A stretch of DNA of 64,000 nucleotides from Candidatus Woesebacteria bacterium (GCA_016432525.1 CP066693.1:160815-224814); one strand, 5' to 3'. Positions 2,296-25,801 are shown, counted from the first letter of the stretch. Program-made: numbers and translations. The notes: generated by a model from the letters alone, not told the origin.

Positions 2296-4026
2296 TTATA
2301 GCTTTTCTATATTAAAAAGACTACTTTTTATACCCACATAACCAGGAGCTCTCAAATTAAATGCGCGCGCAAGCTCTCCACCATCAATCGTGACAGATCC
2401 CTTGTTTGTAGAAAAAGTAACATTCAAAGTATTCCCGCTATTTGAATAAATTACAGATACTCCAGATACACTGCTATATCCACCAATCCCGGCCAAATCA
2501 GACAGTGAGTAAGGGTTTCCTCCCCAACAAGAAGTGTCAATTGGTGAAACACGAGACGCATCTCCAGTTTGCTTATATAAAACCGTCCACGCATTTACTA
2601 TATCTGCCATTTCAGAGGAAGTTAGCCAAGGGTTACCTCGGCCACAAGAAGCTCCACCTCTAGATTTATACCAACCTTTATAAAACCAAGGTGATCCAGC
2701 CAACCTTTCATAGGCAGTTGAAGGCCAATCCCCAGATGCATCTTTAATTCCACTCCACCCCCATTGAGAAATTGTATATCCTCCAGAAGTTGAAGCATAG
2801 TAGGCGGCAGCTGGCTTTCCATCTTTCAATAAAACCATACCCCTTGTTGATGAAACTGCATCCCTCCATTTACCGCTCTTAAGTTGTGACTTATACACCT
2901 GACAAGATTCATCTGGACAAATCGAAGAGGCTCCATTATTTGTAGCATACAAAGCATAGCTTCGAGCTGCAATTGCCTGAGCTTTCAAAGCTTCAAATCC
3001 ACCATTATCTCCCCAACTTTCTGGAATCTCATAAATTCCCAAAAGATAATTATCCTCAAACGAAATTGCTCCATAACCACTAACAGTTATGGATCCTGGT
3101 TCAGAATATCCAGAGGTAAGCTGTGCTCCTTGGTAATAAGCTGATAGAATTGTTTGAAATGATTGCCCTGATTTTGCTCTTCCATAAGCTCCATATTGGC
3201 TCATCCCAGTTCTGTGAGGAGCTCCAAACGAAAAAGCAGCAAACGCAGGGCGATATCCAGGGTCACAAAAATTAGATGTACCACTAGCTCCAGAGCAAGG
3301 CTCAAGTGTATCTGGCGTATCCCCAACTGAAGTAGCAAATCCTCCAGCTTTCAAAGCTTCAAGCTCTTGTTGTTTTGATGAAAGCTCGGATAAATAACTG
3401 TCAACTTTAGAAACCTCTCCCGCCAAAAAAGTCGCCCTGCTATCAACTTGCGCGCGAGCGGCAGAAAGACTTGCCTTATTCTTTTCTAAGTTTGTCTTGT
3501 CACCTTTAAGTTTGGTCAAATCCTGTGAGTAAGCGTCCATTGTTGCTCTATCTTGATCCGCAATTTTTGCTCTTATAAAAATTTCTTGAAAAGCCTCTGA
3601 AGCAGAGTTTGACTCCAAAAAAGAAATCAGAGGATCGTAAGTTCTCAAAAATTTGTAATGGTTAAAAGTTTTTTCATCAAAAACTTGTTTTGTATAAGAA
3701 AGGTCAATCTCTCTCTGTTGTATTTGCTTCTCCAAATCATCAAGGTTCACAGAAATTCCACTAATCCTATTTTTAAGATCAGTTAGTTGCTGATTTAAAG
3801 ACGAAAGCTCTTTTTTGTTTGCCTCCTGAGCAGGAGCTAGTTTATCAATCGCATCTTTAATTTGAGAAATACAGAAGTTTAAATCAGTTTCAGGCCCTGG
3901 ATTATCACAATTTGTATCAGCCATCACTTTCTCAATTCTTCCCAAAAATAAGCTGACCAAAACAAAAACCGTCACAATCCATACAAACAATTTAAAATTC
4001 AAAATTTTGAGACTAAACTTTTTCAT
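2296..4026 (-). CDS. SpoIID/LytB-domain protein with N-terminal signal anchor and long coiled-coil region
   Basis: C-terminal half has SpoIID-family motifs (AIAARSYALYATNN...CPDESCQVYKS...GMVLLKDGKPAAAYYASTSGGYT). N-terminal TM is followed by heptad-like Q/E/K/L-rich region. Confidence 0.7.
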   Translation of the reverse strand: MKKFSLKILNFKLFVWIVTVFVLVSLFLGRIEKVMADTNCDNPGPETDLNFCISQIKDAIDKLAPAQEANKKELSSLNQQLTDLKNRISGISVNLDDLEKQIQQREIDLSYTKQVFDEKTFNHYKFLRTYDPLISFLESNSASEAFQEIFIRAKIADQDRATMDAYSQDLTKLKGDKTNLEKNKASLSAARAQVDSRATFLAGEVSKVDSYLSELSSKQQELEALKAGGFATSVGDTPDTLEPCSGASGTSNFCDPGYRPAFAAFSFGAPHRTGMSQYGAYGRAKSGQSFQTILSAYYQGAQLTSGYSEPGSITVSGYGAISFEDNYLLGIYEIPESWGDNGGFEALKAQAIAARSYALYATNNGASSICPDESCQVYKSQLKSGKWRDAVSSTRGMVLLKDGKPAAAYYASTSGGYTISQWGWSGIKDASGDWPSTAYERLAGSPWFYKGWYKSRGGASCGRGNPWLTSSEMADIVNAWTVLYKQTGDASRVSPIDTSCWGGNPYSLSDLAGIGGYSSVSGVSVIYSNSGNTLNVTFSTNKGSVTIDGGELARAFNLRAPGYVGIKSSLFNIEKL

Positions 4027-4059
4027 TATCTCATTATACCAATCTGCTAAAATTAAATT

Positions 4060-4917
4060 ATGAAAAAGCTATTCTTTTTGTTTTCTCTCTTTGCAATATT
4101 CATTCTAATTGGATCAGTAAATAAAATATCCGCCGCCTCATGTTCAAATTTTAATGTCACTCCTAATTCAGGACAAAGTGACACTGCTTTTACTTTTACA
4201 GCAACCTGCACTCAAGATGGTACATATCATCTCTTTATCACAGATCCCAATGGAGACACCAGCTTAAGCCAAATTATCGAAGTTCAAAATGGTCAATTCA
4301 CTACCATAGTTTCATCTGCAGCAGTGGTAGGACAATACAAAACCCAACTTGTATTCATTACAGATGTTCTAGCTCAAACTAATTTTACAGTTAACCCAGG
4401 AGGAAAAAGCCCAACTTGCTGTTCCATTACTTATTCCGACAAAAATTTCTGTTCAAATGTTCAAGGTCAAATTACACAAGGAAGTTGTAATCCAGTCCCT
4501 TCAGGATCAGAAGCCTGTCCTGAAAATTGCCCTGCTATAGATTTGCGTACAACTTGTGGCGGAAATGATATTTGGGTATGTGCAGGTACTTCTTCCATTC
4601 CCCAATATCTTTGTGCCCCCAACGGAACACAAAAAGCAGAAGGAGTAAATACAGCAATAGGCTGTGTACCAATCACAAAAATCGAAGATACCACAAGTTT
4701 CCTTTTAGTAAGAGGTGCCCAGTTAGCAGGCGGAATTTCTTTTCTTTTTATGATTGCAGGAGCATTCCAGTTAATTACCTCCCGTGGCGATCCTGAAAAA
4801 TTAATTTCAGGTCGACAACTAATCACTTCAGCAATAGGAGGTCTTGTTCTTCTTATCTTTTGTGTATTTTTATTAAAACTAATTGGAATTGATATCCTAG
4901 GTGTAATTACAAAATGA
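4060..4917 (+). CDS. Fusion protein: signal peptide + ~200-aa Cys-rich secreted domain + C-terminal VirB2/TrbC-like T4SS pilin module
   Basis: N-terminal signal peptide, more than 14 Cys in ectodomain. The C-terminus GCVPIT...TM1...TSRGDPEKL...TM2...IGIDILGV has the hydrophobic-loop(GDP)-hydrophobic topology of TrbC/VirB2-type pilins. Paralog of the next nine genes. Confidence 0.55.
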   Translation: MKKLFFLFSLFAIFILIGSVNKISAASCSNFNVTPNSGQSDTAFTFTATCTQDGTYHLFITDPNGDTSLSQIIEVQNGQFTTIVSSAAVVGQYKTQLVFITDVLAQTNFTVNPGGKSPTCCSITYSDKNFCSNVQGQITQGSCNPVPSGSEACPENCPAIDLRTTCGGNDIWVCAGTSSIPQYLCAPNGTQKAEGVNTAIGCVPITKIEDTTSFLLVRGAQLAGGISFLFMIAGAFQLITSRGDPEKLISGRQLITSAIGGLVLLIFCVFLLKLIGIDILGVITK

Positions 4918-5864
4918 AAAAAATAATCCTTCTCTCGCTACTCTTCTCTTTTTTTCTTCTTTTTGCAAGGCAAGCGCAAGCCCAACAACCAGCCAACACT
5001 TTTCAATGTAGCTGTGTTAGTGACGGCTTAGGCGGAAAAACATGCGTAATAGTTAGAGAAAATTGCAACTCTGGCTCTGTCTCAAATCTAAACTTATGTT
5101 CAACCGATCCTGGCTGCAAAGACTTTCTCAATGGAGCAACATGTACTATCCAATGTGTCGCAAGTTCAAACATCCAAAATATCACCTGGGGAGGCGCATG
5201 CGACCCTAATAATTCAAATCAAAAATGCGCTGACAACACAAGCTGTAGAACGGATTTTTCAAATAATTTTAGATGCCTTCTACCTGTAAATTCAGTCAAC
5301 ACAAATAAACAATGCCAAGACACAAACGAATGCATCGGCTATACAGATCCTCTCATTGTATCAAGATGTGGAACTCCTCAAGGCTCAACCCAGTCTATTT
5401 GTCAACCACTACCAAAAGGCCAACTCTGTAAAGACACTCCAAATGCTTCATGTAAAGCAAGTTGTAACACTCAAACAGAAGATCGAATTTCTGCAAACGT
5501 AACAGATTGCTCAGGTGCTACTCCAGTTTGTTGCGCCCCCAAATCTTCCACAACTGATACAGTTGTTTGTAAAACCAACGGAAAAGACGGGATCGACACA
5601 GCCGTAGGCTGTGTTCCCATTACAGAAATAAATTCGTTCGCAGCCAAAGTCTTTGGCTTTGCAGCGGGGATCGCTGGAGGAATTGCAATTTTTCTCATCA
5701 TAGTAGGTGGTTTTCAAATAATCACATCCCAAGGCGATCCTTACAAACTAAAAGAAGGCCGTGAAGTGTTAAATTCAGCAATTCTAGGTCTTCTTTTTAT
5801 AATCTTTGCTGTCTTTTTACTTAGAGTAATTGGAGTTGATATACTGGGAGTAATACCAAAATGA
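4914..5864 (+). CDS. Fusion protein: signal peptide + ~230-aa Cys-rich secreted domain + C-terminal VirB2/TrbC-like pilin module
   Basis: ATGA overlap with the upstream gene. Cys-rich region (more than 25 Cys). C-terminus GCVPITEINSF...TSQGDPYKL...VIGVDILGVIPK is homologous to the 4060..4917 C-terminus. Confidence 0.55.
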   Translation: MKKIILLSLLFSFFLLFARQAQAQQPANTFQCSCVSDGLGGKTCVIVRENCNSGSVSNLNLCSTDPGCKDFLNGATCTIQCVASSNIQNITWGGACDPNNSNQKCADNTSCRTDFSNNFRCLLPVNSVNTNKQCQDTNECIGYTDPLIVSRCGTPQGSTQSICQPLPKGQLCKDTPNASCKASCNTQTEDRISANVTDCSGATPVCCAPKSSTTDTVVCKTNGKDGIDTAVGCVPITEINSFAAKVFGFAAGIAGGIAIFLIIVGGFQIITSQGDPYKLKEGREVLNSAILGLLFIIFAVFLLRVIGVDILGVIPK

Positions 5865-6232
5865 AAACAAAACTATTATTTCTACTTCCAACGTTTTCCC
5901 TTCTTTTTCCTCGAATCGCTTTAGCCGCAGTCGCAAATAGTCCAACTGACTGTCAGGATTTTGGCATCAATACAGCTTTGGGATGTATTCCCTTAACAAA
6001 TATTAATAGCTTTACTGGAACCTTTTTGCGAATCAGCTTAGGCCTAGGTGGTGGCATAGCAACTCTTTTAATAATTTATGCAGGTTTTATAATGACCACC
6101 TCAACCGGTGATCCTAAACGCCTCCAGGCAGGAAAAGAGCTTCTTGGAGCTGCAATTGGAGGTTTAATGCTTTTAATTTTCGCAGTTTTTGTACTAAGAT
6201 TATTAGGAGTAAATATTTTAGGAGTACTATAA
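5861..6232 (+). CDS. VirB2/TrbC-like T4SS pilin paralog (subfamily 1, short N-terminal Cys pair)
   Basis: Signal peptide, CQDFGINTALGCIPLT, then TM1-TSTGDPKRL-TM2-LGVNILGVL; ATGA overlap with upstream gene. Confidence 0.55.
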   Translation: MKTKLLFLLPTFSLLFPRIALAAVANSPTDCQDFGINTALGCIPLTNINSFTGTFLRISLGLGGGIATLLIIYAGFIMTTSTGDPKRLQAGKELLGAAIGGLMLLIFAVFVLRLLGVNILGVL

Positions 6233-6577
6233 ATGAACCAACTCGCACAAAACGTTGATTTCAATACAATTCAAAGTCAGGGCCTTCCTGGCTTTAAATT
6301 CTCAACTGGCACAGTAGGATCAGTAACTTCAGCCCTCCTCCCCTATATCTTCGCCATAGCAGGTATAATTCTGCTTCTATTTCTAATTTCCGCAGGAATC
6401 TCATATATGACAGCCAGAGGTGATCCCAAAGCAATCTCAGGCGCTCAAGCAAGAATCACCTATGCGTTAATCGGCTTCATTATAATTCTTTTAGCCTACT
6501 GGGGGGCCCAGGCCGCAGGTCTTATTTTAGGCCTAGGCCAAATTACAAACACTTTCAAATATACACCTCCTTTTTGA
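6233..6577 (+). CDS. VirB2/TrbC-like T4SS pilin paralog (subfamily 2)
   Basis: MNQLAQ leader, TM1 (LLPYIFAIAGIILLLFLISAGISYM), loop TARGDPKAISGAQ, TM2 (ALIGFIIILLAYWGAQAAGLILGL). Confidence 0.55.
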   Translation: MNQLAQNVDFNTIQSQGLPGFKFSTGTVGSVTSALLPYIFAIAGIILLLFLISAGISYMTARGDPKAISGAQARITYALIGFIIILLAYWGAQAAGLILGLGQITNTFKYTPPF

Positions 6578-6594
6578 TGGTTTATAATTAATCT

Positions 6595-6915
6595 ATGAAA
6601 AATTATTTAGCCCAAGTTAACATAGGAAAAACTTTTGGTTCCCCTTTTGGCCAAGGAAAAGGAGTAAATGATTTAGTCTCCCTAGCCGTAAAAGTAGGCT
6701 TTGTCTTAGCAGGCATAATTATAATTTTTTATTTTATTTTAGGCGGTTATCAAATAATGAGTGGAGGTTCATCTGATCCACGCGCCAAAGAACAAGGAAA
6801 ACAAACAATTACAAGTGCAGTAATTGGATTTGTCATAGTCTTTGTGGCATACTGGATAGTAAGATTAATTGAAGTAATAACTGGCTCAAATTTCATAACA
6901 AATCCAGGATTATAA
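6595..6915 (+). CDS. VirB2/TrbC-like T4SS pilin paralog (subfamily 2)
   Basis: MKNYLAQ leader; TM1-SGGSSDPRAKEQ-TM2 topology. Confidence 0.55.
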   Translation: MKNYLAQVNIGKTFGSPFGQGKGVNDLVSLAVKVGFVLAGIIIIFYFILGGYQIMSGGSSDPRAKEQGKQTITSAVIGFVIVFVAYWIVRLIEVITGSNFITNPGL

Positions 6916-6917
6916 AT

Positions 6918-7253
6918 ATGTTTCAGATATTTGGTACTATCACACAACCCTCTCCCCTGGCTAAATTTGGATCTCTTGAATCAGGTGGAGCCGGAAATTT
7001 TTTAAATTTAATTTTTAAAATTTTGGTAGTTGGAGCAGGAATTTATGCTGTTATAAATATAATCTTAGCAGGTTACTCTTTTCTCTCTGCTGGCGATGAT
7101 CCAAAAGCAATAGCAGGAGCCTGGAATAAAATTTTGCAAACACTTATTGGCTTGGCAGTAGTAGTTGGCTGTTTTGTTTTAGCAGCAATCTTTGGAATTC
7201 TAATTTACGGTGATGCAGGCGCAATTCTTGCGCCTAAAATTCCTACGTTATAA
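6918..7253 (+). CDS. VirB2/TrbC-like T4SS pilin paralog (subfamily 2)
   Basis: TM1-SAGDDPKAIAGA-TM2 topology; 2-nt spacer from upstream paralog. Confidence 0.5.
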   Translation: MFQIFGTITQPSPLAKFGSLESGGAGNFLNLIFKILVVGAGIYAVINIILAGYSFLSAGDDPKAIAGAWNKILQTLIGLAVVVGCFVLAAIFGILIYGDAGAILAPKIPTL

Positions 7254-7266
7254 CAAAGTCACAAAT

Positions 7267-7635
7267 ATGAAACTAACTGATATTCCACTATCTCCCCCAG
7301 GAGGATTTAGTCATCCTTTTGGTCCTTTAGGGCAAACAAATAACGCCGCCGCACCATCACAGTTTACAAATTTCCTCTCAAGCGTAATAGGCGTAATGAC
7401 AATAATTGCAGCGATCTGGTTCACCTTTATTTTTATTTCAGGCGGAATTGGAATAATTTCATCAGGTGAAGACAAAGGGGCACTGGAAAACGCCAGAAAA
7501 AGAATTACAACAGGCATAATCGGCCTTTTTGTAGTCGTTGCTGCTGTTTTTGTAATAAACTTAATTGGAAATCTGCTAGGATTTGGATCAATTCTAAATC
7601 CAATCGATCTTATAAACCAAGTAAAACCAAGATGA
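7267..7635 (+). CDS. VirB2/TrbC-like T4SS pilin paralog (subfamily 2)
   Basis: Track ORF 7210..7635 overlaps the previous gene. The internal ATG at 7267 (MKLTDIPLSPP...) avoids the overlap. TM1-SGEDKGALENA-TM2 topology. Confidence 0.5.
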   Translation: MKLTDIPLSPPGGFSHPFGPLGQTNNAAAPSQFTNFLSSVIGVMTIIAAIWFTFIFISGGIGIISSGEDKGALENARKRITTGIIGLFVVVAAVFVINLIGNLLGFGSILNPIDLINQVKPR

Positions 7636-7997
7636 AAAATTATTTAGCTGCAGCAGGAGGAGATGTTCCAACAGGCGGGATTACCAATCCTGTTCTTAAC
7701 AAATCAATCCAAAACCAAACCGGCCTTAGTTTTTTCCAAACCATTATCCCCAATTTCATAACTCTCGCGCTCGTTGTTGGTTCTTTAATCTTTGTTTTTA
7801 TTCTCATAACTGGCGCAATCTCTTGGATTTCCTCAGGTGGCGACAAAGCAAGTGTAGAATCAGCCAGAGCAAAAGTGACCCACGCTTTAATTGGTCTAGT
7901 AATTTTATTTTCCGTTTTTGCAGTAATTAAGCTTGTCGAAGCCATTTTTGGTTTGAAAATTTTGACTCTTGACATAGCTCCTCTTTTCATTAAATAA
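7632..7997 (+). CDS. VirB2/TrbC-like T4SS pilin paralog (subfamily 2)
   Basis: MKNYLAAAGG leader; TM1-SSGGDKASVESA-TM2; ATGA overlap with upstream gene. Confidence 0.55.
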   Translation: MKNYLAAAGGDVPTGGITNPVLNKSIQNQTGLSFFQTIIPNFITLALVVGSLIFVFILITGAISWISSGGDKASVESARAKVTHALIGLVILFSVFAVIKLVEAIFGLKILTLDIAPLFIK

Positions 7998-8004
7998 TAA
8001 ATAC

Positions 8005-8361
8005 ATGAGAACATTATTAGCACAAGGAACCGGAGGAAGAGGAGATACCATCAACCTATCACCAACAGGTCAATTCGCTAATTTAAATGGAATAACAATT
8101 CCAGGAATAATCACTTTTGCAGTTACAGCAGTTTTAGTAGTAGCAGGTTTAATCTTCTTCTTCATGCTAATTATAGGAGGTATTAAATGGATTGTCTCAG
8201 GTGGAGATAAAGCAAACACAGAAGCAGCTCGAAATCAAATTACAGCAGCCTTAATTGGCTTAGTAATAGTTTTCGCAGCCTGGGCAATAATTACCTTATT
8301 AAGCAATATATTTGGAATTTCAATTCTAAATCTAACTCTTCCAGGTATTCAACAAGGCTAA
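8005..8361 (+). CDS. VirB2/TrbC-like T4SS pilin paralog (subfamily 2)
   Basis: MRTLLAQGTG leader; TM1-SGGDKANTEAA-TM2. Confidence 0.55.
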   Translation: MRTLLAQGTGGRGDTINLSPTGQFANLNGITIPGIITFAVTAVLVVAGLIFFFMLIIGGIKWIVSGGDKANTEAARNQITAALIGLVIVFAAWAIITLLSNIFGISILNLTLPGIQQG

Positions 8362-8446
8362 AACCTATCTAATATATCTTTCAATATGCATATATTGTTC
8401 ATATTGATTTCTCTCTGCTTTTTACTTTAGACTTATATTTAAAGGT

Positions 8447-8794
8447 ATGAATAATTTACTAGCTCAAGCCACTAAGATTCCCGAAGTCCCTCTCCAGGTT
8501 GGTCAAAACACAACTGTCAGTATTCCCTCTTTAAAAGGCTTTGAGACTCTTTTTGCAAATGTCCTTCAAGTTGCAATAGCTCTAGCAGGTATTGGTTTTT
8601 TTGTAATGCTTCTCATAGGTGGCTTTAAATATCTAACATCTGGCGGCGATCCAAAAGCAGTTGAGTCAGCCAAAAACACTCTTACTTGGGCAATTTTCGG
8701 TCTAGTTGCTGTTGCTCTCGCCTTTCTGATTCTTCTTGCAATTGCAAACTTTACTGGAGTCACAAGTATTCTAAATTTCCAGGTAGCCCCATGA
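8447..8794 (+). CDS. VirB2/TrbC-like T4SS pilin paralog (subfamily 2)
   Basis: MNNLLAQATK leader; TM1-SGGDPKAVESA-TM2; stop overlaps start of the hydrolase gene (ATGA at 8791-8794). Confidence 0.55.
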   Translation: MNNLLAQATKIPEVPLQVGQNTTVSIPSLKGFETLFANVLQVAIALAGIGFFVMLLIGGFKYLTSGGDPKAVESAKNTLTWAIFGLVAVALAFLILLAIANFTGVTSILNFQVAP

Positions 8795-11700
8795 GATTAA
8801 AAAAAAAGTATTTTCTGGCAACTATTTTAGGTTTTTTAATATTTTTTTCATCACAAGTTGGTAATTTAAGTAATACCAAAGCAGCAGTTGCATCCCCTCA
8901 GCTTAAAACTGAAATAAATTTCTTTCTCAATCAATCAGATACCAGTGGCTATCTTCTTTGGCAATACTCTGGAACTACTGATCCAGCAGGAATAATCGGT
9001 GGCGACTCGGTCGACTCATACTCGTTCTACGGAAACGGTACCGTTTGTGCAACATTAAAGGAAATGTCCCAATCTCTTCCTTCTGGAAAATTCTTAGGTG
9101 TAAACGTCCACGCCTTAAGTAATCACTTAGATAAGCTAAATACTGTTCTAGATGATCTCGAAAACAATTGCGGTACATCAGTAATTAGAATTTTTGGAAC
9201 TTCGGGAAACGGTGGCCCGGGAGCTGTCAAATCTGTTTTGGATGCAGCAGCATCCAAAGGAATGAAAGTAATTGTTGCAGCAGATGATTATTCAAATATC
9301 ATAGGTCCTGCAAACCCAGACCCCACAAATTGGTATCGAAGTGGATATAGAACTACATATCTTCCTTATGTTTTATCTCTTGCCCGTACAATCGGAGGAA
9401 ATCCAGGTCTTTTTGCAATAGAACTTGCAAACGAACCTCACTGTAGTGGTGTTATAGGTTGTGTTCCTTATTACAACTCTTGGGTAGCAGACGTTTCAAG
9501 CCAAATAAAGGCAATTAATTCAAGTATCCAAGTAAGTATTGGACAAATGGGAAATAACACCAATAATCGAGGCGATTCTCCTCCTCCAGGAGATTACAAA
9601 CAAAGCAATAGTGTAAGCACAATTGACATTGGATCAGGACACTATTACACAACAGGCGAAAGAACAATAGTTCAACAAGCGCAGTCTCAAGCCCAATCTC
9701 TTGGAAAGTCTTTCTATATTGGTGAGGCAAGCTCAACCTTGGTTGTTAATGACAACACCTCAACTGGGGGCAACCAACCTCCTATTCAAACCCCCAAACC
9801 AGATCCTTTTGTTCCTTGTGATGAAGTAAGATTAAGCCAAGGAAATACAGAATTCCATTCTCTCAGGCCTTACCAATCAAGCCCCTGTAATACTCAAATG
9901 TCAGATGAAGCTTTATATTGTGGAAACGATCTAATCGTTAAAAAAACTTTTACTGTAACCCCAAGCCAGGGAACATGTACCTCTTTTTGGCCTGACGGCT
10001 CTCCCAAAACCTGTAATTTTACCTTTGACAATACTATCAATTCAACAAATATTTCAGTTGACCTTTCAAACGCCAAATTTCCAATTATGGGTAATACAGA
10101 AAATGTTCCAAACGAATACGGCCAAGGCGTTACACCTCAGGCAACAGACACACAAAAAGTAAATGAATATGTAAGTTGGTACTTGCAAGGATCAAAACAA
10201 AAAGCAGAAGAGCCTTTAACCAACGTTCAAGGAACTGATGACGCAGATACAAATTCAGATGCTTACAAACTGGTCAATCTCACAGGTCCACTGCGAAGGC
10301 TTTTACCAGAACGCCTTCAAAGAGTTCAAAGATATTCGACCATAGTCAAAGCAACCAAAGGAATGCCTCCACCAAAAGCCAACGGTGCAATATCAGATAT
10401 GAGAATCGGAGCCCTTAACCCAACTCTTCAAAAAGAATCTCATGACGAAACAGTTGGTTGCATGAATAATGGCAATGGAGAAGTTTTTCCATGTACTACT
10501 AATACAGATGAAAGTGAACGCATAAGGCTATCTTTCTTCCTAAATAAACTTGTAGGCCCGGGAGGCGGTTCTCCTCTTTTGGAAGAATTTCCAGCCTATC
10601 AAACTAACGGTCAATTCGATTTCTATAAATTCTGGCAAGCCTATCTTACATTTAACGGCAATCCTGTGTGTATTATTTATGGCTTTCTCTGCCCAACCGA
10701 CCCTGTAGGTAGAGCCCAAGCTAACATTTTCTTAAACATTCCCTTCTCTTCAACCGAAGATCGTTTAGGTCAAACATATACAAACAATGGGCTGGTTATA
10801 GATCCAAATTTAGTCTCCCAACCCCAATCAGACTCTCAAGTTTCAAATGTGGAGTTTGTTCCCACAAACACAAAACACAGACTCTATTTTGCCCATATGC
10901 AAGAAAGCTCAGAGCTTGCAACTTTAATCCAAAACACTTTCCTTCCAAAAGGAGTTACCGCTTTCGACCCCTCCCCTCCTAGTCAAACCTTTTATAACTC
11001 CCAAAGGTGTGAAATAAAAGATGCAAGGTCAAACCCAGGAGACAATCTCTTTGGTAATTTCACTCAGCCTGCCAATAGTCCAATTTCAGGAGACCAGACA
11101 ATCGCAGGGAAAATCTCATACACTGTAAAGTTTACATGCGAGTTTCCCCAACCCACTCCAAATCAATCATGTATAAACGATTGTATCTTTAACCTTTCTA
11201 AAGCTGGCCTACCAACAAATACTTGTTCGTCTCAATGCCCCCCAATTCAACCAACATGTACAAGAACTTCACTTACCGCTCTTTCAATCTACACCCAAAC
11301 TCCAAAAATCAATGATGTTTGGCAACAATTGGTTGAAGGTCCCTCCTCAGTCTTCAAAAGAATATTTCCACAAGTAAGCCCCAATGCACCAGTTACTGAG
11401 ATCAAAGATGTTCCAGGAGTAACCCAAGCCTCTTATTCAACCTCCTCAGATGAAGTCCTTGCAGGCGACCCAGGAGCTAATCGTGCTGGCTCTCAAGCTC
11501 AACTCTTCTTTCCTCATATTGGAGGAATCTATGATTATTTCCTAAAAGATATTCAAACAGCCTTAAGACCATACGGAGTTGCGCCAGATTCCCCAGGTAC
11601 TACCGCCCAAGTGTCCCCTGTATCTTCAAGCGTTGATCCTGGTCAATGCAGAAGTTCAATCTGGTCAGGAATACCAATAGACGGTTTTCCAGGCCCAATT

Positions 11701-16191: not shown

Positions 16192-16303
16192 CTTAGTTTC
16201 CTTATTTTAAAGAACTTTCGATTCCTAATTATAACACTATAAGATGAAATATGCTATAATAATCCTGTCCATCTAGTATATTGTTCCTTGAAAGGGAAAT
16301 TTC

Positions 16304-16720: not shown

Positions 16721-16768
16721 AACCATGGTAAAACATATAGGCAAATAGCATTTTAAAAAGAGGTAAAA

Positions 16769-17038: not shown

Positions 17039-17084
17039 TCCAACCACATTCACAGCCCTCAACCAAACAAAAACCAGTTGGGGG

Positions 17085-17915: not shown

Positions 17916-17977
17916 CTTGCTCGAGAATAAAAATCACCTGCCTGCCGGCAGGCTGGTCTGCTAGTTTTCCGACTTTA

Positions 17978-17994
17978 CCCCGATTTAATCGGGG
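17978..17994. repeat. Hairpin-forming 17-mer ccccgatttaatcgggg (copy 1, intergenic)
   Basis: 7-bp stem ccccgat/atcgggg with tta loop. An identical 17-mer recurs at 18707..18723. It sits 23 nt downstream of the perfect 12-bp palindrome cctgccggcagg (17941..17952) in the divergent promoter region. Confidence 0.5.
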
Positions 17995-18164
17995 TTTACG
18001 GTTGCGGCACAGCGAGGGATTTACACCCTACTTCCTTTAACACAGATTAGTATTAAACATATTCTCAAGTGGTAAACTTGTAAAGATAACAAACTATATA
18101 AAAAGATTCACCGTGAAAATGTGAAATACTTGATTAAATCTCTTCACGATATAAGCTTAAAGTA

Positions 18165-19217
18165 ATGCAAGAACATCCAGTACCCCAACAAATTTCATCA
18201 TATAGCTTCAAATTAGTCGGAGATATGACTCTTAAGCAATTTTTTGAAGTTGCAGGCGGAGTTGGTGTTGGAATTCTTTTTTACATCACAGGTCTTCCAG
18301 GAGTTATAAAGTGGCCCTTGATTCTTATCTCAGTTATCACAGGAGGAGCACTTGCTTTTATCCCTTTTGAAGAGCGTCCTCTAGAACAATGGATTTTTGC
18401 CTTCTTTAGATCAATTTACTCTCCAACTCTTTTCTATTGGAAAAAGTTAGAAGCTCGCCCACAATATTTCCAAAAGGAATTGCCAGTTATTCCAGAACAG
18501 TTTCAAAAACCAAAAGAACAAGTTCAAGAAATTGAAGCAATAAAACCAGAAATTCTAGCTCAAATTCAAAAGAAAGAAGTTCAAAAAGCAGACACACAAA
18601 CTCAAAACTTTCTTTCAAATCTTGAAAATACCGAAAAAGCTTTTCTTTCTCAAATCAACAATCTTTTTAGCCTCAATCTTGTTCCTCCAAAGCCTTCTAA
18701 AGTTCACCCCGATTTAATCGGGGAAAAACCAAGCCTTACAGTTCCACCAACCTTAAAAGTTGCCGTCTCCCCTTCTTCAAACATTCCCAAAGTTGAAAAA
18801 GTTATAATTCCAGCCCAAAACGTACAGGTCAGTAAAGTCTCAAAAACTTTAAAATCAAATCCTATTTTGGATGCCATGCAGGCTCAATTTACAACTAATG
18901 TTCCTTCAATGCCAACTCAGTCAAATACAATAACAGGACAAATTCTAGACACAACAGGAAAAATAGTAGAAGGCGCAATAATAGAAATTCGAGATGCTGC
19001 AGGCCGTCCAGCTCGTGCACTTAGAAGCAACAAGGCAGGACATTTTCTTATAAGTATTCCTTTTTCTAATGGAAAATATGAAATAATCGTAGAAAAAGAG
19101 GGTTTAGCATTTACCCCTGTCAGCTTTGAAGCAACAGGTGGCATCATTCCACCAATTCTCATAAAAGCAGATAAAGAGGTTGTAATAAAAGATATTTTCC
19201 AAAATGAAAAGCTTTAA
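18165..19217 (+). CDS. Membrane protein with two N-terminal TM helices (VirB3-like position), Q-rich linker and C-terminal carboxypeptidase-regulatory-like beta-sandwich domain
   Basis: Two TM segments near N-terminus directly upstream of the VirB4 region. C-terminal GQILDTTGKIVEGAIIEIRDAAGRPARALRSNKAGHFLISIPFSNGKYEIIVEKEGLAF resembles CarbopepD_reg-like folds. Confidence 0.4.
   Translation: MQEHPVPQQISSYSFKLVGDMTLKQFFEVAGGVGVGILFYITGLPGVIKWPLILISVITGGALAFIPFEERPLEQWIFAFFRSIYSPTLFYWKKLEARPQYFQKELPVIPEQFQKPKEQVQEIEAIKPEILAQIQKKEVQKADTQTQNFLSNLENTEKAFLSQINNLFSLNLVPPKPSKVHPDLIGEKPSLTVPPTLKVAVSPSSNIPKVEKVIIPAQNVQVSKVSKTLKSNPILDAMQAQFTTNVPSMPTQSNTITGQILDTTGKIVEGAIIEIRDAAGRPARALRSNKAGHFLISIPFSNGKYEIIVEKEGLAFTPVSFEATGGIIPPILIKADKEVVIKDIFQNEKL
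18707..18723. repeat. Hairpin-forming 17-mer ccccgatttaatcgggg (copy 2, inside CDS 18165..19217, encodes HPDLIGE)
   Basis: Exact second copy of the 17978..17994 sequence; flanks also similar (tt[c/a]ccccgatttaatcgggg). Confidence 0.5.
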
Positions 19218-19911
19218 AAATTTTACAAACAAAATACCAATATTAAATATTCCAGATGTTCCAATTGTTGCAACAACCCAAGATCATCTTCCAATTGAAG
19301 ATATTGTAGATAACATGCTTATCTACAAAGATGGTGGAGCAGCAATTGTATTAGAATCAACATCTTTAAACTTTGGTCTTCTCTCTGATAACGAGCAAGA
19401 AGCAGTAATCGCAGCTTACGCAGCACTCCTAAATAGCCTTTCCTTTTCAATTCAAATTCTAGTCCGATCTCAAAGAAAAGATATTTCAAATTACTTACAG
19501 TATTTAGAAAAAGAAGGAGCAAAAATCCAAAATCCCAAACTCCAGGTCTTAATGACTGGTTACAGAAACTTCATATCAGAAACTATTAAAAAGAAAAATG
19601 TACTAGGAAAACGCTTTTTTATAATTCTCATGTTTTCTTCTCTAGAGCTGGGAGTTACAAAATCCTTTATGGCTTTCACTAAAAGATCAAAGATCCTTCC
19701 TTTTTCAAAAGAATATGTCATAAAAAAAGCAAAAATCACTCTCTATCCCAGAAAAGACCACATTACCCGCCAGGCATCTCGCTTGGGTTTAAAACTCAAA
19801 GAGTTAGATTCAAACGAGTTGGTAGAATTATTCTATGATATCTATAATCCAAAGCCACCGGCTACATCAATAAGAGAGGAGAAAGATGAATCCACAACAA
19901 TCACAAGCTAA
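19204..19911 (+). CDS. Hypothetical protein in T4SS-like cluster (immediately upstream of and overlapping VirB4 start)
   Basis: 235-aa ORF, translationally coupled (overlaps) on both sides; no recognizable motif. Confidence 0.4.
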   Translation: MKSFKNFTNKIPILNIPDVPIVATTQDHLPIEDIVDNMLIYKDGGAAIVLESTSLNFGLLSDNEQEAVIAAYAALLNSLSFSIQILVRSQRKDISNYLQYLEKEGAKIQNPKLQVLMTGYRNFISETIKKKNVLGKRFFIILMFSSLELGVTKSFMAFTKRSKILPFSKEYVIKKAKITLYPRKDHITRQASRLGLKLKELDSNELVELFYDIYNPKPPATSIREEKDESTTITS

Positions 19912-22900
19912 TCCACCAGTCAAAGTTAAATGGGTTCCTCCAAAATCAGAAAAGCCACCCATTTCAGATCTTCAAAAAGAAATTGAAGAGAAGAAACTAG
20001 TTCCAGAGGATCTAATTTCTCCACCAAATCTAGAGGTTGATTTTGATTTCATAAAAATTGGGGACGTTTATCTTCGAACCCTTTTTATAGGAGGCTATCC
20101 CCGCTTTGTAACAGCAGGCTGGCTAGAACCAGTCATTAATTTCAATCACTCAATGGACATTTCTTTTTACATTTATCCAGTCGAGGGAAAATCCGTTCTT
20201 GATGACCTTCGTCGAAAAATTGCAGAAATGGAAGCAGAAATCTCCACTGACTTGGAAAGAGGAAAAATTGTGAATCCATCAACTACAGCCAAACTGGAAG
20301 ACGCCAAAGTTTTACAAGATCAACTTGTTAAAGGCATTGAGCGCTTCTTTGAATTTTCTTTCTATATCACAATTCCAGCCCCGTCTTTAGAAGAGCTCAA
20401 CCACTTAACTCGTCAAGTTGAATCCACCCTAGGAGCTTTATTAATTGTGGCAAAAAGAGCAGCACTTGATATGGAAAATGGCTTTGCATCAACTGCTCCC
20501 TTTGGAATTGACAGATTAGCTATAACAAGAAATATGGATACAACCTCTCTTGCAACGACTTTTCCCTTCACCTCAGCTGAACTTTCATCAGATGAAGGAA
20601 TTCTCTATGGAATAAACCCTCAAAACGATTCATTCATAATTTTTGACCGTTTCTCTTTGGAAAATTCAAATATGACAATTTTTGCAACCTCTGGAGCTGG
20701 AAAATCAACGAGCTACAACGATCCTGTTCTTTTTGACAATGGATCCGGTCCAAAGTTAGAAAAAATTGGAAAACTCATAGAAAATTTAATGCAAAAAAAT
20801 AAAATCACACAATTAGATCAAGAGTCTGAGGGTGTAATTAATCCTAATCTAAAAATATTTAGTTTTGATAAAAATCTTAAAACAAAATGGTCAGACGTAA
20901 AAATCGCTGCCAGAAAATTGTCGCCAAACGATATGTACCAAATCATAACTCAAAGTGGCCGCGAAATTACAATAACAGGTGATCATTGTCTGGTAGCACT
21001 AAAAAACGGTAAGGTAGTAACAATCAAAGGGAAAGCCGCAAAGATTGGCAATTACCTACCAGTACCAAGGCTAATTGAAAATTTAGAAGTTAAAAACAAT
21101 TTTTCTCAAGAATTATTGACTCTATTGGGACTAATAACTAGTGAGGGGCATACAAGAAAGGAGTTTGTTTCAATATATAATACAGACAAATTCGTACTAA
21201 AAAAGATCGAGAAATGCGCTCTTAAACTAGGTTTCTATGTCTCCCCAATATCTAAAGACAAAAAAATTAGAGGGTATTACTTAAGACCAGCAGACAAAGC
21301 AAGAATTTTAATTAAAAAATTTGGTGGTTTTGGAAGTTCAAAAGAAAAAAGAGTGCCTTCAATAATATTTTCTCTTCCAAATAGCGAAATTGCCCAATAC
21401 TTAAAAGCCTACTTTGAAGGAGATGGTGGTTGTGAAGACCACGAAATAACTGCAACAACAAAGTCAAAAAACCTTGCTTCAGATCTCTCTTATCTTCTCT
21501 TGCGCTTTGGAATAATTGCAAGAATAAAAACTAGAAAGAAAGCGGCAACAAATACTGTTGCCAAAACAAAAAGAAAATATTATCGAGTATCAATTTCTGG
21601 ACAAGACAACATCAAAAAATTTATTGACAACATAGGATTTTTGACTGAAGAAAAAAATACCAAGGCACAAAAACTACTGAAAGCTGGCAACACTAATGTT
21701 GATATAATTCCAGAGATTGAGTCCATTTTCAAAGAAATATACCCCATACTCTACAATTCAGAAATTCCTGCACCCCAAAAGTTTTCAGAAATCAAACTAG
21801 GAATTTTTAAACCCTCGCGCCAAAACCTGTTAACCGTCATCGCTGAAATCGAAAAAAGAATCCAAGAAATCAAATCTTTAGAAACAGATGGACTGTCTAC
21901 TCTTAATACCTTAAAAATCTTAGAAGCAAAACGTCCACCCAAATTAAAGCCTGCACTTAAAATTATAAATACTGAGTATGGTTATAACTACACCCAGAAA
22001 GACATTACAGGAGCAGTCTATAGAAGCTTTCAAAAAACAGGTGAATCACTTATTAGATTCGATAAGTCACTTTGGTCAGCTATAACACAAGTAAATCAAA
22101 ATCCTCTATATCAAAAAGTACTTAATGCCCGAGAGTTTATAAATCAAAAATACGAAGAGAAGAAATTTAAATTAAAAGAGATAAAAGAAAAACTATCTTG
22201 GCTCAAAACTTTAGCGAACTCAGACCTTTTCTGGGATCCAATTGTAAAAATCAAGAAAATAAAATCAAAACATAAATATGTATATGACCTGGAAGTAGAC
22301 AATGCAGTTTTTATGGCTGGTCATGGTGGTCTTTTTATTCACAACTCTTTCTTTGTCAAACTTGAAGCTCTCCGCTCTTTAATGCTTGGAACTCAGATAA
22401 TAATTCTTGATCCAGAAAACGAATACAAAACTCTCTGTGAAGCCGTAGGTGGCGAATTTATTACTTTTTCTTTTTCCTCTCCTTCAAAAATTAACCCTTT
22501 TGACCTTTCAACAGTTTACGAAAAAGGTGAAAGTGCATTAGGTCTTAAAATTCTCTCTCTTCACTCGCTTTTTAAAATCATAATGGGTGCTCTTACTGCT
22601 ACCCAAGAAGCTATGCTTGATCGTGCAATAATTATGACTTACAAAGCAAAAGGAATAACTCAAGACCCTGAAACCCAAACAAAAGAGCCTCCTTTAATGG
22701 AAGATCTTTATAAGACTCTTATCGGAATGGAAGTTGCAGATGCGCTTGACATGGCAGCTCGTATTGAAAAATTTGTTAAAGGCTCATTTGTTGGAATTTT
22801 TGATCAGCAAACAAATGTTGATATCAAAAACCCATTCACAGTCTTTTCAGTCCGCGATCTTCAGGATGCACTTCGCCCTATCGCCATGTTTATAATTCTT

Positions 22901-23401
22901 GATTTTATCTGGACCAAAGTCAAAAAAGATTTAGCTCGAAGATTAATGATCGTCGATGAGGCATGGCACATGATGCGCTATGAAGACTCCGCCCAATTTT
23001 TATGGTCCATCGTCAAACGCGCCAGAAAATACTATCTAGGAATCACTACAATCACTCAAGACGTCGAAGATTTCTTAAGTCAGGACATTGGAAAAGCCGT
23101 TGTCACAAACTCAGCGCTTCGCGTTCTTCTTAAACAATCCCCTGCAGCAATTGATCGAGTCGGAGAAATTTTCTATTTATCCCAAGGTGAACGCCAACTT
23201 CTGCTAGCAGCAAATGTTGGAGAAGGGATTTTCTTTGCAGGACCCCATCATGCACCAATCAGAGTTGTCGCATCCCCTGAAGAATACAAACTTATTACAA
23301 CCAAGCCTCAAGAGCTTGTTACACAAAGCCAAAAACCAAAAGGGAGTGAATTTTCTCCATCAGAAGTAGTCACTGTAGTTAAAGAGTTCAATAAAACATA
23401 A
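19886..23401 (+). CDS. virB4: VirB4/TrbE-like T4SS ATPase interrupted by an intein
   Basis: Walker A FATSGAGKS(T) at 20693-20710. Extein resumes SFFVKLEALRS... at 22346, and Walker B-like MIVDEAWHMM follows downstream. Minus the intein the protein is ~625 aa, with the typical VirB4 C-terminal NTPase layout. Confidence 0.7.
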   Translation: MNPQQSQANPPVKVKWVPPKSEKPPISDLQKEIEEKKLVPEDLISPPNLEVDFDFIKIGDVYLRTLFIGGYPRFVTAGWLEPVINFNHSMDISFYIYPVEGKSVLDDLRRKIAEMEAEISTDLERGKIVNPSTTAKLEDAKVLQDQLVKGIERFFEFSFYITIPAPSLEELNHLTRQVESTLGALLIVAKRAALDMENGFASTAPFGIDRLAITRNMDTTSLATTFPFTSAELSSDEGILYGINPQNDSFIIFDRFSLENSNMTIFATSGAGKSTSYNDPVLFDNGSGPKLEKIGKLIENLMQKNKITQLDQESEGVINPNLKIFSFDKNLKTKWSDVKIAARKLSPNDMYQIITQSGREITITGDHCLVALKNGKVVTIKGKAAKIGNYLPVPRLIENLEVKNNFSQELLTLLGLITSEGHTRKEFVSIYNTDKFVLKKIEKCALKLGFYVSPISKDKKIRGYYLRPADKARILIKKFGGFGSSKEKRVPSIIFSLPNSEIAQYLKAYFEGDGGCEDHEITATTKSKNLASDLSYLLLRFGIIARIKTRKKAATNTVAKTKRKYYRVSISGQDNIKKFIDNIGFLTEEKNTKAQKLLKAGNTNVDIIPEIESIFKEIYPILYNSEIPAPQKFSEIKLGIFKPSRQNLLTVIAEIEKRIQEIKSLETDGLSTLNTLKILEAKRPPKLKPALKIINTEYGYNYTQKDITGAVYRSFQKTGESLIRFDKSLWSAITQVNQNPLYQKVLNAREFINQKYEEKKFKLKEIKEKLSWLKTLANSDLFWDPIVKIKKIKSKHKYVYDLEVDNAVFMAGHGGLFIHNSFFVKLEALRSLMLGTQIIILDPENEYKTLCEAVGGEFITFSFSSPSKINPFDLSTVYEKGESALGLKILSLHSLFKIIMGALTATQEAMLDRAIIMTYKAKGITQDPETQTKEPPLMEDLYKTLIGMEVADALDMAARIEKFVKGSFVGIFDQQTNVDIKNPFTVFSVRDLQDALRPIAMFIILDFIWTKVKKDLARRLMIVDEAWHMMRYEDSAQFLWSIVKRARKYYLGITTITQDVEDFLSQDIGKAVVTNSALRVLLKQSPAAIDRVGEIFYLSQGERQLLLAANVGEGIFFAGPHHAPIRVVASPEEYKLITTKPQELVTQSQKPKGSEFSPSEVVTVVKEFNKT
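20708..22345 (+). mobile_element. Intein (~545 aa) with LAGLIDADG homing endonuclease domain inserted in the VirB4 P-loop
   Basis: Begins with Ser right after GAGKS(T) (N-terminal boundary uncertain by one or two residues). Two LAGLIDADG-like motifs (LLTLLGLITSEGHT and IAQYLKAYFEGDGG). Ends ...LFIHN (His-Asn at 22340-22345), followed by +1 Ser of the extein. Confidence 0.7.
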
Positions 23402-24796
23402 ATGGCAGAGGAAAAAAAACAACAAAACACCCGAAACGCAACTAAAACAGCTTCTGCAGCAACCGGCATAGCAGCAACTTGGGTCACTCGAGCAGCACTT
23501 CTAGCTACAGGAGTCGGAGAAGCAATAGGTCCCCTACTTGAACCCCTAGCAAGAGCAATAGGAGCTTTAGTATCCAAAATAACAAGAGAGGTATCGAAAT
23601 ACATTAAAAAACATCCCATTGCTGCTGGAATTGCAGCTGGAGGATTTGTTCTCCCTGCCCTTTTGGCTGGCACAACCGGAGCAGTCGCATTAACCACTCC
23701 ATTGTTAGTCGCCGGAGGTGTTTTTTTTATATCTGCAATTTTTGGAGGAGTAATTCTTGGAGCAGTCTTTGCTGGATTTATGGCTGCTTTTTTAGGATTC
23801 ATAATATTTCTTGCGATTACAATTTTTATAATTAATTCAGGAGCGTATCTTGTTCCTCCAGCCCCACAATTAGGAAGCTCTATAGGAAACCTTCCACCAG
23901 GTTCCACAGCTATCTCAAATCCTTACATAGAAGTAACTAAAATAGCAGATCCTCCAGGTCCTTTCCAAAACGGAGCTGTCCCAAACCCTATAACTTACAC
24001 AATTACAATAAAAGCTAAACAAGGAGCTTTAATAAACCCCCGCTTTGACAATAAATGTAACGTTCTCACAGCCAGATCTAACAGCACTTCTGATGTAATT
24101 AGAGAAACTAACCCAATCTGTCCAGCTCCAATTCCAATAGGCAACACTCCACAAACAATAGATCCTGGATCCAGTGGTTATACATTTAAATATACAGCCG
24201 ACTACACTTCCAGTGCTTTTACTGATGCTCTAGTTACAGATACCTTTACAGTTACTGCAACTGTAGAAGGGGTCAGTGACCAAACAGCAGCAGCAACCGC
24301 AGGAATTGTAATAGGTAATCCACCAGCTCAATGTCCAAATGGCTGGCCAATTCTTCCGCAGGGAAGCGAAAGATTTTTATCTATAATACAAGGGCCTTAT
24401 GGTCTTTATTCCCACTCAAGAATTGAGGCAATTGACGTTGTAGCTTCAATAGGCCATTCAATAACCGCACGAAATTCTGGAACTGTAACGGCTTACAACA
24501 CACCAGCGGATGCTTATGGAAAACATGTTGTAATATCGTCTGTTTGTAACGGTAAAAAATACAATACTATATTTGGACATCTAGACATTATATCCGTAAG
24601 AACTGGAACAACAGTATCTCTAGGCACTATAATAGGATATAGTGGAAACAATGGACATAGCGATATTCCCCACCTTCACTACGAGTTTAGCCCCCCATTG
24701 CCAAATGTTGCCGTACCAATGTCCCAACCATTTATTCCTAAAAATGTCAAAAAATATTGCTATTATCTAAACCCTTGTGACGCAACTGTGCCGTAA
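23402..24796 (+). CDS. Membrane-anchored M23 (LytM-type) peptidoglycan endopeptidase
   Basis: Ala/Gly-rich N-terminus with 3-4 TM helices. C-terminus has M23 motifs (HSRIEAIDVV...GKHVVI...NTIFGHLD...GHSDIPHLHYE with HxH). Confidence 0.65.
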   Translation: MAEEKKQQNTRNATKTASAATGIAATWVTRAALLATGVGEAIGPLLEPLARAIGALVSKITREVSKYIKKHPIAAGIAAGGFVLPALLAGTTGAVALTTPLLVAGGVFFISAIFGGVILGAVFAGFMAAFLGFIIFLAITIFIINSGAYLVPPAPQLGSSIGNLPPGSTAISNPYIEVTKIADPPGPFQNGAVPNPITYTITIKAKQGALINPRFDNKCNVLTARSNSTSDVIRETNPICPAPIPIGNTPQTIDPGSSGYTFKYTADYTSSAFTDALVTDTFTVTATVEGVSDQTAAATAGIVIGNPPAQCPNGWPILPQGSERFLSIIQGPYGLYSHSRIEAIDVVASIGHSITARNSGTVTAYNTPADAYGKHVVISSVCNGKKYNTIFGHLDIISVRTGTTVSLGTIIGYSGNNGHSDIPHLHYEFSPPLPNVAVPMSQPFIPKNVKKYCYYLNPCDATVP

Positions 24797-24811
24797 TTAA
24801 TGTCTTAAAAT

Positions 24812-25801
24812 ATGAAAAAGAAATTCTTTATCTTTATCTTTATAATTTCTGTAATCTTCTTGATTTTTATTTATTTTAAATATATAAAAAACAGAGGAGT
24901 TGCTCCCTATATACCTACCCCAAAAATCACAAACTATTTAAAAAACCAAATCCCTATAGAATTATCTCTAAAAGAAAGCGATTTCAAAATGCCACAAAGC
25001 GCCCGCCCTTTAGATAACCAAAATACAAATCCGATAACAGACGAGCAAGCAATGCTATATGGCAAAAATGCTGGTTTCCAAAATGAACCAATCATTGCAG
25101 ATGACGTATTTGATGGAAAAACATTCATTTGGAGTAACGAAAAAGAAGCCCTAACAGTTTACTCTCAATCATCTACGATAAAATATTCTTTAAACACACA
25201 AGACAGAAATGGAGCTAGCAAAAAACCCAAAGACGAACTAATAAAAATATCTAAAGAATTTCTAATATCCAAAGGCCTCTTAAACTCTAAAGAATCTTCA
25301 GAATTCTCTTATATTACTTTTCTGAAAAATAGACAGCCTGATGGATTTTATCCCACAACTGAAAATGACGCGGATTTCTATCAAGTCAACTTCGCACCTA
25401 TATCTGGTGGTAAAAAAATTCTCACCCTAGATCCCGATGCCTCTCCGATAAATGTCTGGATTCTTCCAGATGGCACAATAACCAAAGCTATAGTAATTCG
25501 TTTGGGACATGTAAAAGAAGCTACTACCTCTTATAAACTAAAAAATTATCAAGAGCTAGTAGGTTCCTTAAATAACGCTACAATAGTCAGCCTAGATAAT
25601 GGAAATGCTGGTCTTGTAGAGACAGGAAATGAAGTCAAAAAAATAACAGTTAACCAAATAGAGCTCGTATATCTTATCGACACCCCCAAAAGTAAAATCT
25701 TCCAACCTGTTTACCTTCTAAAAGGAGACGCAACGCTCAAAGATGGTATAACTACAATAAACACAATGCTTTATCTCCCTGCAATTTCATATCTCCCTTA
25801 A
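24812..25801 (+). CDS. Hypothetical N-terminally anchored extracytoplasmic protein (329 aa)
   Basis: Single N-terminal TM (FFIFIFIISVIFLIFIYF); last gene of the cluster, converging on dnaN with overlapping stops. Confidence 0.4.
   Translation: MKKKFFIFIFIISVIFLIFIYFKYIKNRGVAPYIPTPKITNYLKNQIPIELSLKESDFKMPQSARPLDNQNTNPITDEQAMLYGKNAGFQNEPIIADDVFDGKTFIWSNEKEALTVYSQSSTIKYSLNTQDRNGASKKPKDELIKISKEFLISKGLLNSKESSEFSYITFLKNRQPDGFYPTTENDADFYQVNFAPISGGKKILTLDPDASPINVWILPDGTITKAIVIRLGHVKEATTSYKLKNYQELVGSLNNATIVSLDNGNAGLVETGNEVKKITVNQIELVYLIDTPKSKIFQPVYLLKGDATLKDGITTINTMLYLPAISYLP

Follow-up and report, generated by a model that had tools for sequence, protein, structure and literature searches.

Type IV secretion systems (T4SSs) are among the few machines of Patescibacteria, a very large and mostly uncultured share of bacterial diversity, that have been shown to be essential for life on a host, in this case in Saccharibacteria. 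In Southlakia epibionticum, transposon insertion sequencing showed that the cluster SEML1_0006-0019 and the pilins are essential for epibiotic growth (Wang 2023 Cell, PMC10633639), and this cluster lies at the chromosome start and contains no recognisable coupling protein or relaxase (PMC10633639). A survey of 3,035 Patescibacteria genomes placed most of the VirB4 proteins in a Patescibacteria clade nested in MPF_FATA, accompanied by TrsD, PrgI and VirB2 arrays of 2-11 genes, the latter especially in Microgenomatia (Quinonero-Coronel 2025 Microb Genom, PMC12102498). The same survey located the T4SS cluster near dnaA/dnaN in Microgenomatia and Paceibacteria, found relaxases in only 103 of the 3,035 genomes, and reported that VirB6 and VirB1 homologues are scarce in Microgenomatia (PMC12102498). 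The T4SSs of Patescibacteria are also treated in a 2025 FEMS review (PMC12857230), and in the R388 system VirB6 is the platform for pilus assembly (PMC9259494). Here we describe a T4SS-like cluster at positions 2296-25801 of a 64-kb stretch (the window) of the chromosome of a Candidatus Woesebacteria bacterium, which belongs to the Microgenomatia within the Patescibacteria (candidate phyla radiation).

We consider it highly probable that this cluster is a chromosomal T4SS of the Patescibacteria clade, that is, a monoderm, MPF_FATA-derived system that gained an array of VirB2-type pilins and lost its link to conjugation. An origin-adjacent, relaxase-less T4SS with pilin arrays, repurposed from conjugation, has already been published and is not new. 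The window provides a clean Woesebacteria example, in which the T4SS ATPase proves more strongly constrained than DnaA, and adds a VirB6 recognised at the level of fold in Microgenomatia, a candidate MltB-like transglycosylase domain, and a variable 4.3-kb segment with a cobalamin riboswitch-like RNA.

Components of the cluster

The cluster extends from a SpoIID gene on the left (2296) to the final gene ahead of dnaN on the right (25801), in a window whose GC content is 31-42%. The ends of the open reading frames (ORFs) overlap or abut, which indicates two operons that run in the same direction and are translationally coupled. The first, operon 1 (4060-13828), encodes twelve pilin paralogues, a secreted wall/polysaccharide hydrolase and a membrane platform with a VirB6-like fold, and operon 2 (18165-25801) encodes PrgI/VirB3, TrsD, VirB4, a membrane M23 endopeptidase and an ectodomain protein. 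Most of the components were called by Pfam and NCBIfam scans of the window ORFs. For comparison, the window proteins were run by tblastn on a set of 80 loci from Woesebacteria and other Microgenomatia (L001-L080), with one genome per species; the organism titles of many of these records are wrong.

The gene at 19886-23401 (+) encodes a VirB4 ATPase of the MPF_FATA/CD1110 type, with a score of 357 bits against NF045971 (conju_CD1110; cutoff 325) and a match to PF19044. An intein of 547 aa that includes a LAGLIDADG homing endonuclease (20705-22345, +; PF14890, PF14528) interrupts the coding region between GAGK and S of the Walker A motif, and VirB4 is active only after the intein has been spliced out. 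The spliced protein of 624 aa is 75-82% identical to most of the intein-less VirB4 proteins of Woesebacteria and Microgenomates among the matches listed. A second Woesebacteria protein (P0003) carries an intein at the same VirB4 site, and nearly all other relatives are intein-less. VirB4 inteins and P-loop insertion sites are already known (PMC4760082); earlier reports of VirB4 inteins were rare.

Directly upstream of virB4, and overlapping both of its neighbours, lies the gene for a TrsD-like protein (19204-19911, +), which is homologous to the N-terminal domain of VirB4. The protein matched NF041427 (TrsD, E 4.6e-7) and NF045975 (VirB4 N-region, E 5.7e-8), both under the curated cutoffs. The gene is found in 79 of the 80 loci with 46-69% identity, and homologues of the protein carry PF26593 (TraC-like). 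The first gene of the operon (18165-19217, +) encodes a PrgI/VirB3-like protein with two transmembrane (TM) helices (PF12666, 32 bits, cutoff 27) and a C-terminal beta-sandwich of the CarboxypepD_reg type (PF13620, E 1.8e-7), and it is present in 77 of the 80 related loci.

The pilin array occupies 4060-8794 (+), where twelve genes for two-TM, VirB2-like proteins follow one another. PF18895 (T4SS_pilin) matched 11 of the 12 at E <= 0.09, seven of them above the gathering score, and the twelfth is readily alignable with the other 11. All share a GDP(K) loop between the two TM helices, and the mean pairwise identity is 29%. The first two genes (4060-5864, +) encode long pilins of 285 and 316 aa, recognised by PF18895, by alignment and by their TM segments. 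In each, a Sec signal is followed by an N-terminal domain rich in Cys (13 and 24 residues, respectively) and a C-terminal VirB2-like two-TM domain; PF18895 matched the product of 4914-5864 at E 4.5e-7 and the C-terminus of that of 4060-4917 at E 0.086. The remaining ten (5861-8794, +) are short paralogues of 106-123 aa, with PF18895 E values of 2.7e-12 to 1.6e-3. They are closely packed, some of them overlapping, and include the ORFs 5861-6232, 6233-6577, 6595-6915, 6918-7253, 7267-7635, 7632-7997, 8005-8361 and 8447-8794 (all +).

At the end of operon 1, the ORF at 12305-13828 (+) encodes a polytopic membrane protein, 100% identical to the NCBI hypothetical protein HY044_00975 of a Candidatus Woesebacteria bacterium. 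It had no annotated match in Pfam, in NCBIfam, in a phmmer search of the PDB or in a search of the PDB with a 37-sequence profile, and one of the 37 relatives touches TrbL (E 0.013). An AlphaFold2 (AF2) model built from 70 homologues had a pLDDT of 80.2 and a pTM of 0.65. When this model was compared with the PDB by Foldseek, ranks 1 to 5 were each taken by a TrwI/VirB6 chain of R388 (E 5e-3 to 4e-2, TM scores 0.36-0.48), the chains' identity being such that it agreed with the structure paper (PMC9259494). This modest but specific similarity suggests that the protein is VirB6-like at the level of fold only, and makes it a candidate platform for pilus assembly and translocation. The gene lies upstream of virB4 in 44 of 46 relatives.

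Three proteins of the cluster may act on the cell wall. The largest (8791-12279, +) is a secreted multidomain hydrolase of 1162 aa, with a GH5 domain at aa 145-313, a middle region at aa ~330-960 and a divergent MltB/SLT_2-like domain at aa ~930-1162. The GH5 domain, of the cellulase family (window 8791-9800), scored 26.5 bits against PF00150 (cutoff 23.5) and retains intact NEP and GE catalytic motifs. Only the middle part of the protein is widely conserved across relatives. GH5 is lineage-specific: just 3 of the 34 proteins related through the C-terminal domain carry it, which makes it a recent domain accretion, the target of which is possibly a host polysaccharide. The C-terminal domain itself had no match in Pfam (even at E <= 10), in NCBIfam or among PDB sequences. 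Among its 34 relatives, one matches SLT_2 (4.9e-6) and one SLT (8e-4), and the profile of the domain gave E. coli Slt35/MltB as the top PDB match, weakly (E 0.1), in an alignment where the invariant Glu and a GPMQ motif fall on the catalytic motifs. The putative transglycosylase domain seems closer to MltB (family 3) than to VirB1. A word-indexed homologue search with this domain gave one relative only, and a two-sequence AF2 model was discarded (pLDDT 47.5), Foldseek returning noise with a phi6 lysin only at E 3-8.

The gene at 23402-24796 (+) encodes a membrane-anchored M23 peptidoglycan endopeptidase (PF01551, E 1.2e-17) and is found at the same position in 38 of the 80 loci. The SpoIID/LytB-type lytic transglycosylase (2296-4026, -; PF08486, E 6.6e-14; TIGR02669, 118 bits, cutoff 83), with an N-terminal TM helix and a coiled coil, is encoded at the left edge of the cluster, next to the pilin operon and divergently from it; in a relative (L082) the SpoIID gene is likewise divergent, (-)/(+), from the pilin array, which there has 8 pilins.

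The last gene ahead of dnaN (24812-25801, +) encodes a single-pass membrane protein, here called u329, with an external domain of ~300 aa. Its family was found in 17 loci and is directly upstream of dnaN in every one of them. Neither a profile search of the PDB nor a Pfam scan of 16 members gave a match. We regard u329, which has an N-terminal TM helix, as a candidate subunit of the VirB8/TcpC type, apparently missing from Patescibacteria.

A first-pass annotation, made by a model from the DNA sequence alone, had described a pilin array, a VirB4, a two-TM protein at the VirB3 position, a membrane M23 endopeptidase and a SpoIID-like protein, and the domain matches above bear out each of them. 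It had also described a VirB1-like lytic transglycosylase fused to a GH5-like domain. The GH5 part stands, the transglycosylase part is supported in part by two of the 34 relatives and by the MltB match, and its likeness seems to be more to MltB than to VirB1. The VirB6-like protein that it named is supported by fold, and was not recovered in any sequence or profile search. The TrsD-like gene, the VirB4 intein and the insert nature of the segment 13861-18164 were absent from that annotation.

Position, inheritance and rival explanations

The cluster is followed by dnaN (25798-26898, -) and dnaA (27064-28467, -), both identified by Pfam. Six DnaA-box-like 9-mers at 26943-27123 fall within or close to the stretch between dnaN and dnaA, and a perfect DnaA box, TTATCCACA, is located at 28460-28468, at the dnaA start. 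The group of six boxes, 1.1 kb from the end of the T4SS cluster, is the probable oriC judging from this arrangement; cumulative GC skew showed no turning point at dnaN-dnaA and was uninformative as evidence for the origin. That a T4SS-like island adjoins the replication origin, as the first-pass annotation had claimed, is confirmed by the component matches, by dnaN and dnaA and by the DnaA-box cluster.

Among the relatives, a recurring gene order was found: [pilins]-hydrolase-VirB6-like-[variable]-PrgI-TrsD-VirB4-M23-(u329)-dnaN-dnaA-rnpA-yidC-jag. In 55 of the 59 related species with enough flanking sequence, dnaN lies at most 4.7 kb downstream of virB4. In the same loci the mean identity of VirB4 is 73.5%, compared with 54% for DnaA, 44% for DnaN and 56% for YidC, and the divergence of VirB4 correlates with that of DnaA, DnaN and YidC (rho 0.51-0.65). 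The conserved adjacency to dnaN, together with the conservation and co-divergence of VirB4, indicates that the cluster is a vertically inherited and strongly constrained part of the core genome and not an integrative and conjugative element (ICE).

The first-pass annotation had found no coupling ATPase, relaxase, VirB11 or recombinase in the 64 kb, had argued for a chromosomally fixed machine rather than a conjugative element, and had proposed synteny beside dnaN as a check. The sizeable ORFs of the window, each of them scanned against Pfam, gave no match to a coupling ATPase of the VirD4/TraG type or to a relaxase, VirB11, integrase or transposase, the other sizeable ORFs being housekeeping and envelope genes only, which upholds the first claim for the window ORFs. 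The second is supported by the synteny, the co-divergence and the lack of an integrase and of att-like repeats. A search for ICE boundaries gave no candidate: flanking direct repeats of at least 18 nt did not exceed the chance level, and the 64-kb window has no tRNA genes. A conventional ICE with its relaxase, coupling protein and integrase outside the window would fit the best match of VirB4, which is to a conjugative-element family (CD1110 of CTn2), and coupling-protein homologues are common elsewhere in Patescibacteria genomes, a few of which have relaxases (PMC12102498). However, an element of this kind would not be expected to keep the same dnaN-adjoining site in nearly all species examined, to co-diverge with its housekeeping neighbours while being better conserved than DnaA, or to lack an integrase, att-like repeats and a tRNA target in the 64 kb; with relaxases as rare as the survey found them, we consider the ICE very improbable.

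Two further explanations were considered. The cluster could be a machine for uptake (or release) of DNA or nucleotides, like the archaeal Ced/Ted systems or ComB of Helicobacter, that scavenges host nucleic acids. Ced/Ted and ComB work with a VirB4-type ATPase and membrane subunits but have neither relaxase nor coupling protein, and the VirB4, VirB3, VirB6-like protein and wall hydrolases found here, with no coupling protein or relaxase, fit such relaxase-independent DNA transporters. Patescibacteria are unable to make nucleotides de novo (PMC10633639), the T4SS cluster co-localises with comF, recG and radA in the class ABY1 (PMC12102498), and the window has a ComM-like gene (47632-49173). We nevertheless regard uptake as unlikely. 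In S. epibionticum, competence needs comEC, and cells survive the deletion of comEC, whereas they require the T4SS (PMC12857230), and transformation therefore does not explain the essentiality of the T4SS; moreover, no Ced- or ComB-specific subunit was recognised, and Ced/ComB systems do not feature arrays of VirB2-type pilins. The cluster could also be an organelle for attachment only, in which the VirB4/VirB6 core assembles VirB2-type adhesion filaments without translocating a substrate. The divergence of the twelve pilins, of which two bear ectodomains rich in Cys, suggests surface variation, no coupling protein is present in the 64 kb, and in the R388 model VirB4 and VirB6 are conceptually enough for pilus biogenesis (PMC9259494). 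We find this explanation unlikely as well, because Patescibacteria already adhere by type IV pili (PMC12102498, PMC12857230), although the sequence data do not separate it from a T4SS of the Patescibacteria clade.

Proposed function and comparison with known systems

For a Patescibacteria-clade T4SS, which is the reading we prefer, the R388 structure and the MPF_FATA systems suggest how the machine might work. VirB4 hexamers, anchored by PrgI/VirB3, would power the extraction of pilins from the membrane, and the pilins would polymerise on the VirB6 platform. By analogy, the SpoIID, MltB-like and M23 hydrolases would open the cell's own, and perhaps the host's, peptidoglycan, and the divergent pilins, among them the two whose ectodomains are rich in Cys, may set the contact with different hosts. 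If the genetics of Saccharibacteria can be extended to this bacterium, the machine would be needed for growth on the host cell, and would export proteins or otherwise mediate exchange with the host rather than conjugative transfer of DNA. The function of the machine, be it secretion, pilus formation or uptake, is inferred.

Several observations weigh against the preferred reading. No Microgenomatia system has a demonstrated function, and the window data point to no substrate. VirD4-like homologues occur in 2,918 of the 3,035 genomes of the Patescibacteria dataset, mostly far from virB4 (PMC12102498). The lack of a coupling protein holds for the 64 kb only; going by the survey, homologues are likely to exist elsewhere in this genome, and substrate coupling by a distant gene, or even DNA transfer, is possible. 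No VirB8-like subunit is recognised in the cluster. The VirB6 assignment depends on modest Foldseek scores (E 5e-3, TM scores 0.27-0.48), that of the transglycosylase on weak transitive homology, and we infer the clade of VirB4 from the best NCBIfam model and from the 75-82% identity to other Woesebacteria proteins.

The cluster is most like that of S. epibionticum ML1 and the other T4SSs of the Patescibacteria clade, with which it shares a VirB4 that descends from MPF_FATA, a TrsD gene immediately ahead of virB4, PrgI/VirB3, VirB6, a divergent pilin array, peptidase/lysozyme-type hydrolases after virB4, a chromosomal site adjoining dnaA/dnaN, and the lack of a relaxase and a coupling protein. 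It differs from the published systems in minor respects: in having 12 pilin genes, compared with 2-11 in the survey and 6 in S. epibionticum, in the large Cys-rich N-terminal domains of two pilins, in the GH5 domain and the putative MltB-like domain of the hydrolase, in the VirB4 intein, and in the variable 4.3-kb segment with a cobalamin riboswitch-like RNA that splits the cluster. A VirB6-fold protein also stands at a conserved position here, whereas the survey found VirB6 to be scarce in Microgenomatia (PMC12102498).

With the conjugative MPF_FATA systems (CTn2 CD1110, pCF10 Prg, pGO1 Trs and pIP501), the cluster has in common a VirB4 above the CD1110 cutoff, PrgI and TrsD homologues, dedicated cell-wall hydrolases and the lack of outer-membrane core subunits. 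Unlike them, it has no relaxase, coupling protein or integrase within the cluster and is fixed in the core genome; it also has VirB2-type pilins, which monoderm conjugation systems do not have, and no PrgB-type adhesin was seen. The two-TM VirB2-like pilins, the VirB6-like fold and the VirB3-VirB4 pairing resemble the MPF_T systems (A. tumefaciens VirB and R388 Trw), but VirB5, VirB7-VirB10, VirB11 and VirD4 are missing here, the envelope is monoderm and the likeness of VirB6 is one of fold only. Bordetella Ptl, Brucella VirB, Helicobacter ComB and archaeal Ced, which are non-conjugative, similarly have no recognised coupling protein in the cluster; these systems differ from the present one in being of the diderm MPF_T type or archaeal, with other accessory subunits.

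The variable insert and the rest of the window

Between the two operons lies a 4.3-kb insert (13861-18164, genes on both strands), which is little conserved among relatives and is not part of the core T4SS. None of its ORFs had an informative Pfam or NCBIfam match. It begins with the gene for a charged cytoplasmic protein of 585 aa that ends in GGGGGGKKRK (13861-15618, -), and also encodes a 157-aa protein (-), a 138-aa Zn-ribbon protein (+), an 89-aa protein (+) and, divergently from prgI, a 276-aa protein with a C-terminal Zn ribbon (17085-17915, -). In 47 of 53 loci, a large minus-strand ORF opens the variable segment directly after the VirB6-like gene. These analogues are 440-1122 aa long, are hypervariable and fall into many separate sequence clusters, and the large antisense-encoded protein might be an effector or specificity factor that evolves rapidly. 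The large variable ORFs were also considered as a cryptic coupling ATPase, and this was ruled out, a Walker A motif being found in only 2 of the 47.

The gene for the 276-aa protein is preceded by a cobalamin (AdoCbl-clan) riboswitch-like RNA (17931-18047, -). It scored 41.6 bits against RF01482, below the gathering score of 50 (E about 1e-6 locally), and an Rfam scan of the window gave nothing at gathering score. Near-threshold AdoCbl-II matches were found at the same spot in two relatives. A covariance model of the RNA recovered 12-13 loci, in 11 of which the RNA abuts a member of the 276-aa protein family (about 11 of 81 loci). Compensatory changes were seen in 14 of 23 base pairs, and 88.9% of the cells were paired, compared with 36-47% in slid controls. 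We found nothing in the literature searched that links cobalamin riboswitches with Patescibacteria. An extra hairpin of the RNA, CCCCGATTTAATCGGGG (17978-17994), is repeated exactly within the prgI coding sequence at 18707-18723, 729 nt downstream; 0.02 matches would be expected by chance for this second copy, and the repeat is absent from the 80 related loci.

A more speculative proposal, which we think improbable, would join these features with the T4SS into a host-tapping organelle, with a surface diversified by the pilins, Cys-rich tip adhesins, a hypervariable protein acting as a secreted effector or specificity factor and an accessory gene switched by cobalamin. Under this proposal, the two Cys-rich long pilins may replace the missing VirB5 as tip adhesins. 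If it were true, the cobalamin-switched accessory gene would tie the machine to the acquisition of a cofactor or nutrient from the host.

Outside the cluster, rRNA genes were suspected at 50-54 kb from the high GC content and were ruled out, Rfam giving none. The product of the region 50580-54375 (-; GC 43-47%) is instead a surface-type protein, in which an N-terminal Gly_rich_2 domain precedes over 1,000 residues of SPS(I/V)SPS repeats. This gene is split into three ORFs, for which errors of assembly or frameshifts within the repeat may be responsible, and spurious long ORFs appear on the opposite strand. The window also encodes a VanW/PG_binding_4 protein (38542-40311, -) and a second M23 peptidase (45369-45986, -), and the ComM/Mg-chelatase-like ATPase (47632-49173, +) is grouped with envelope and competence-related genes.

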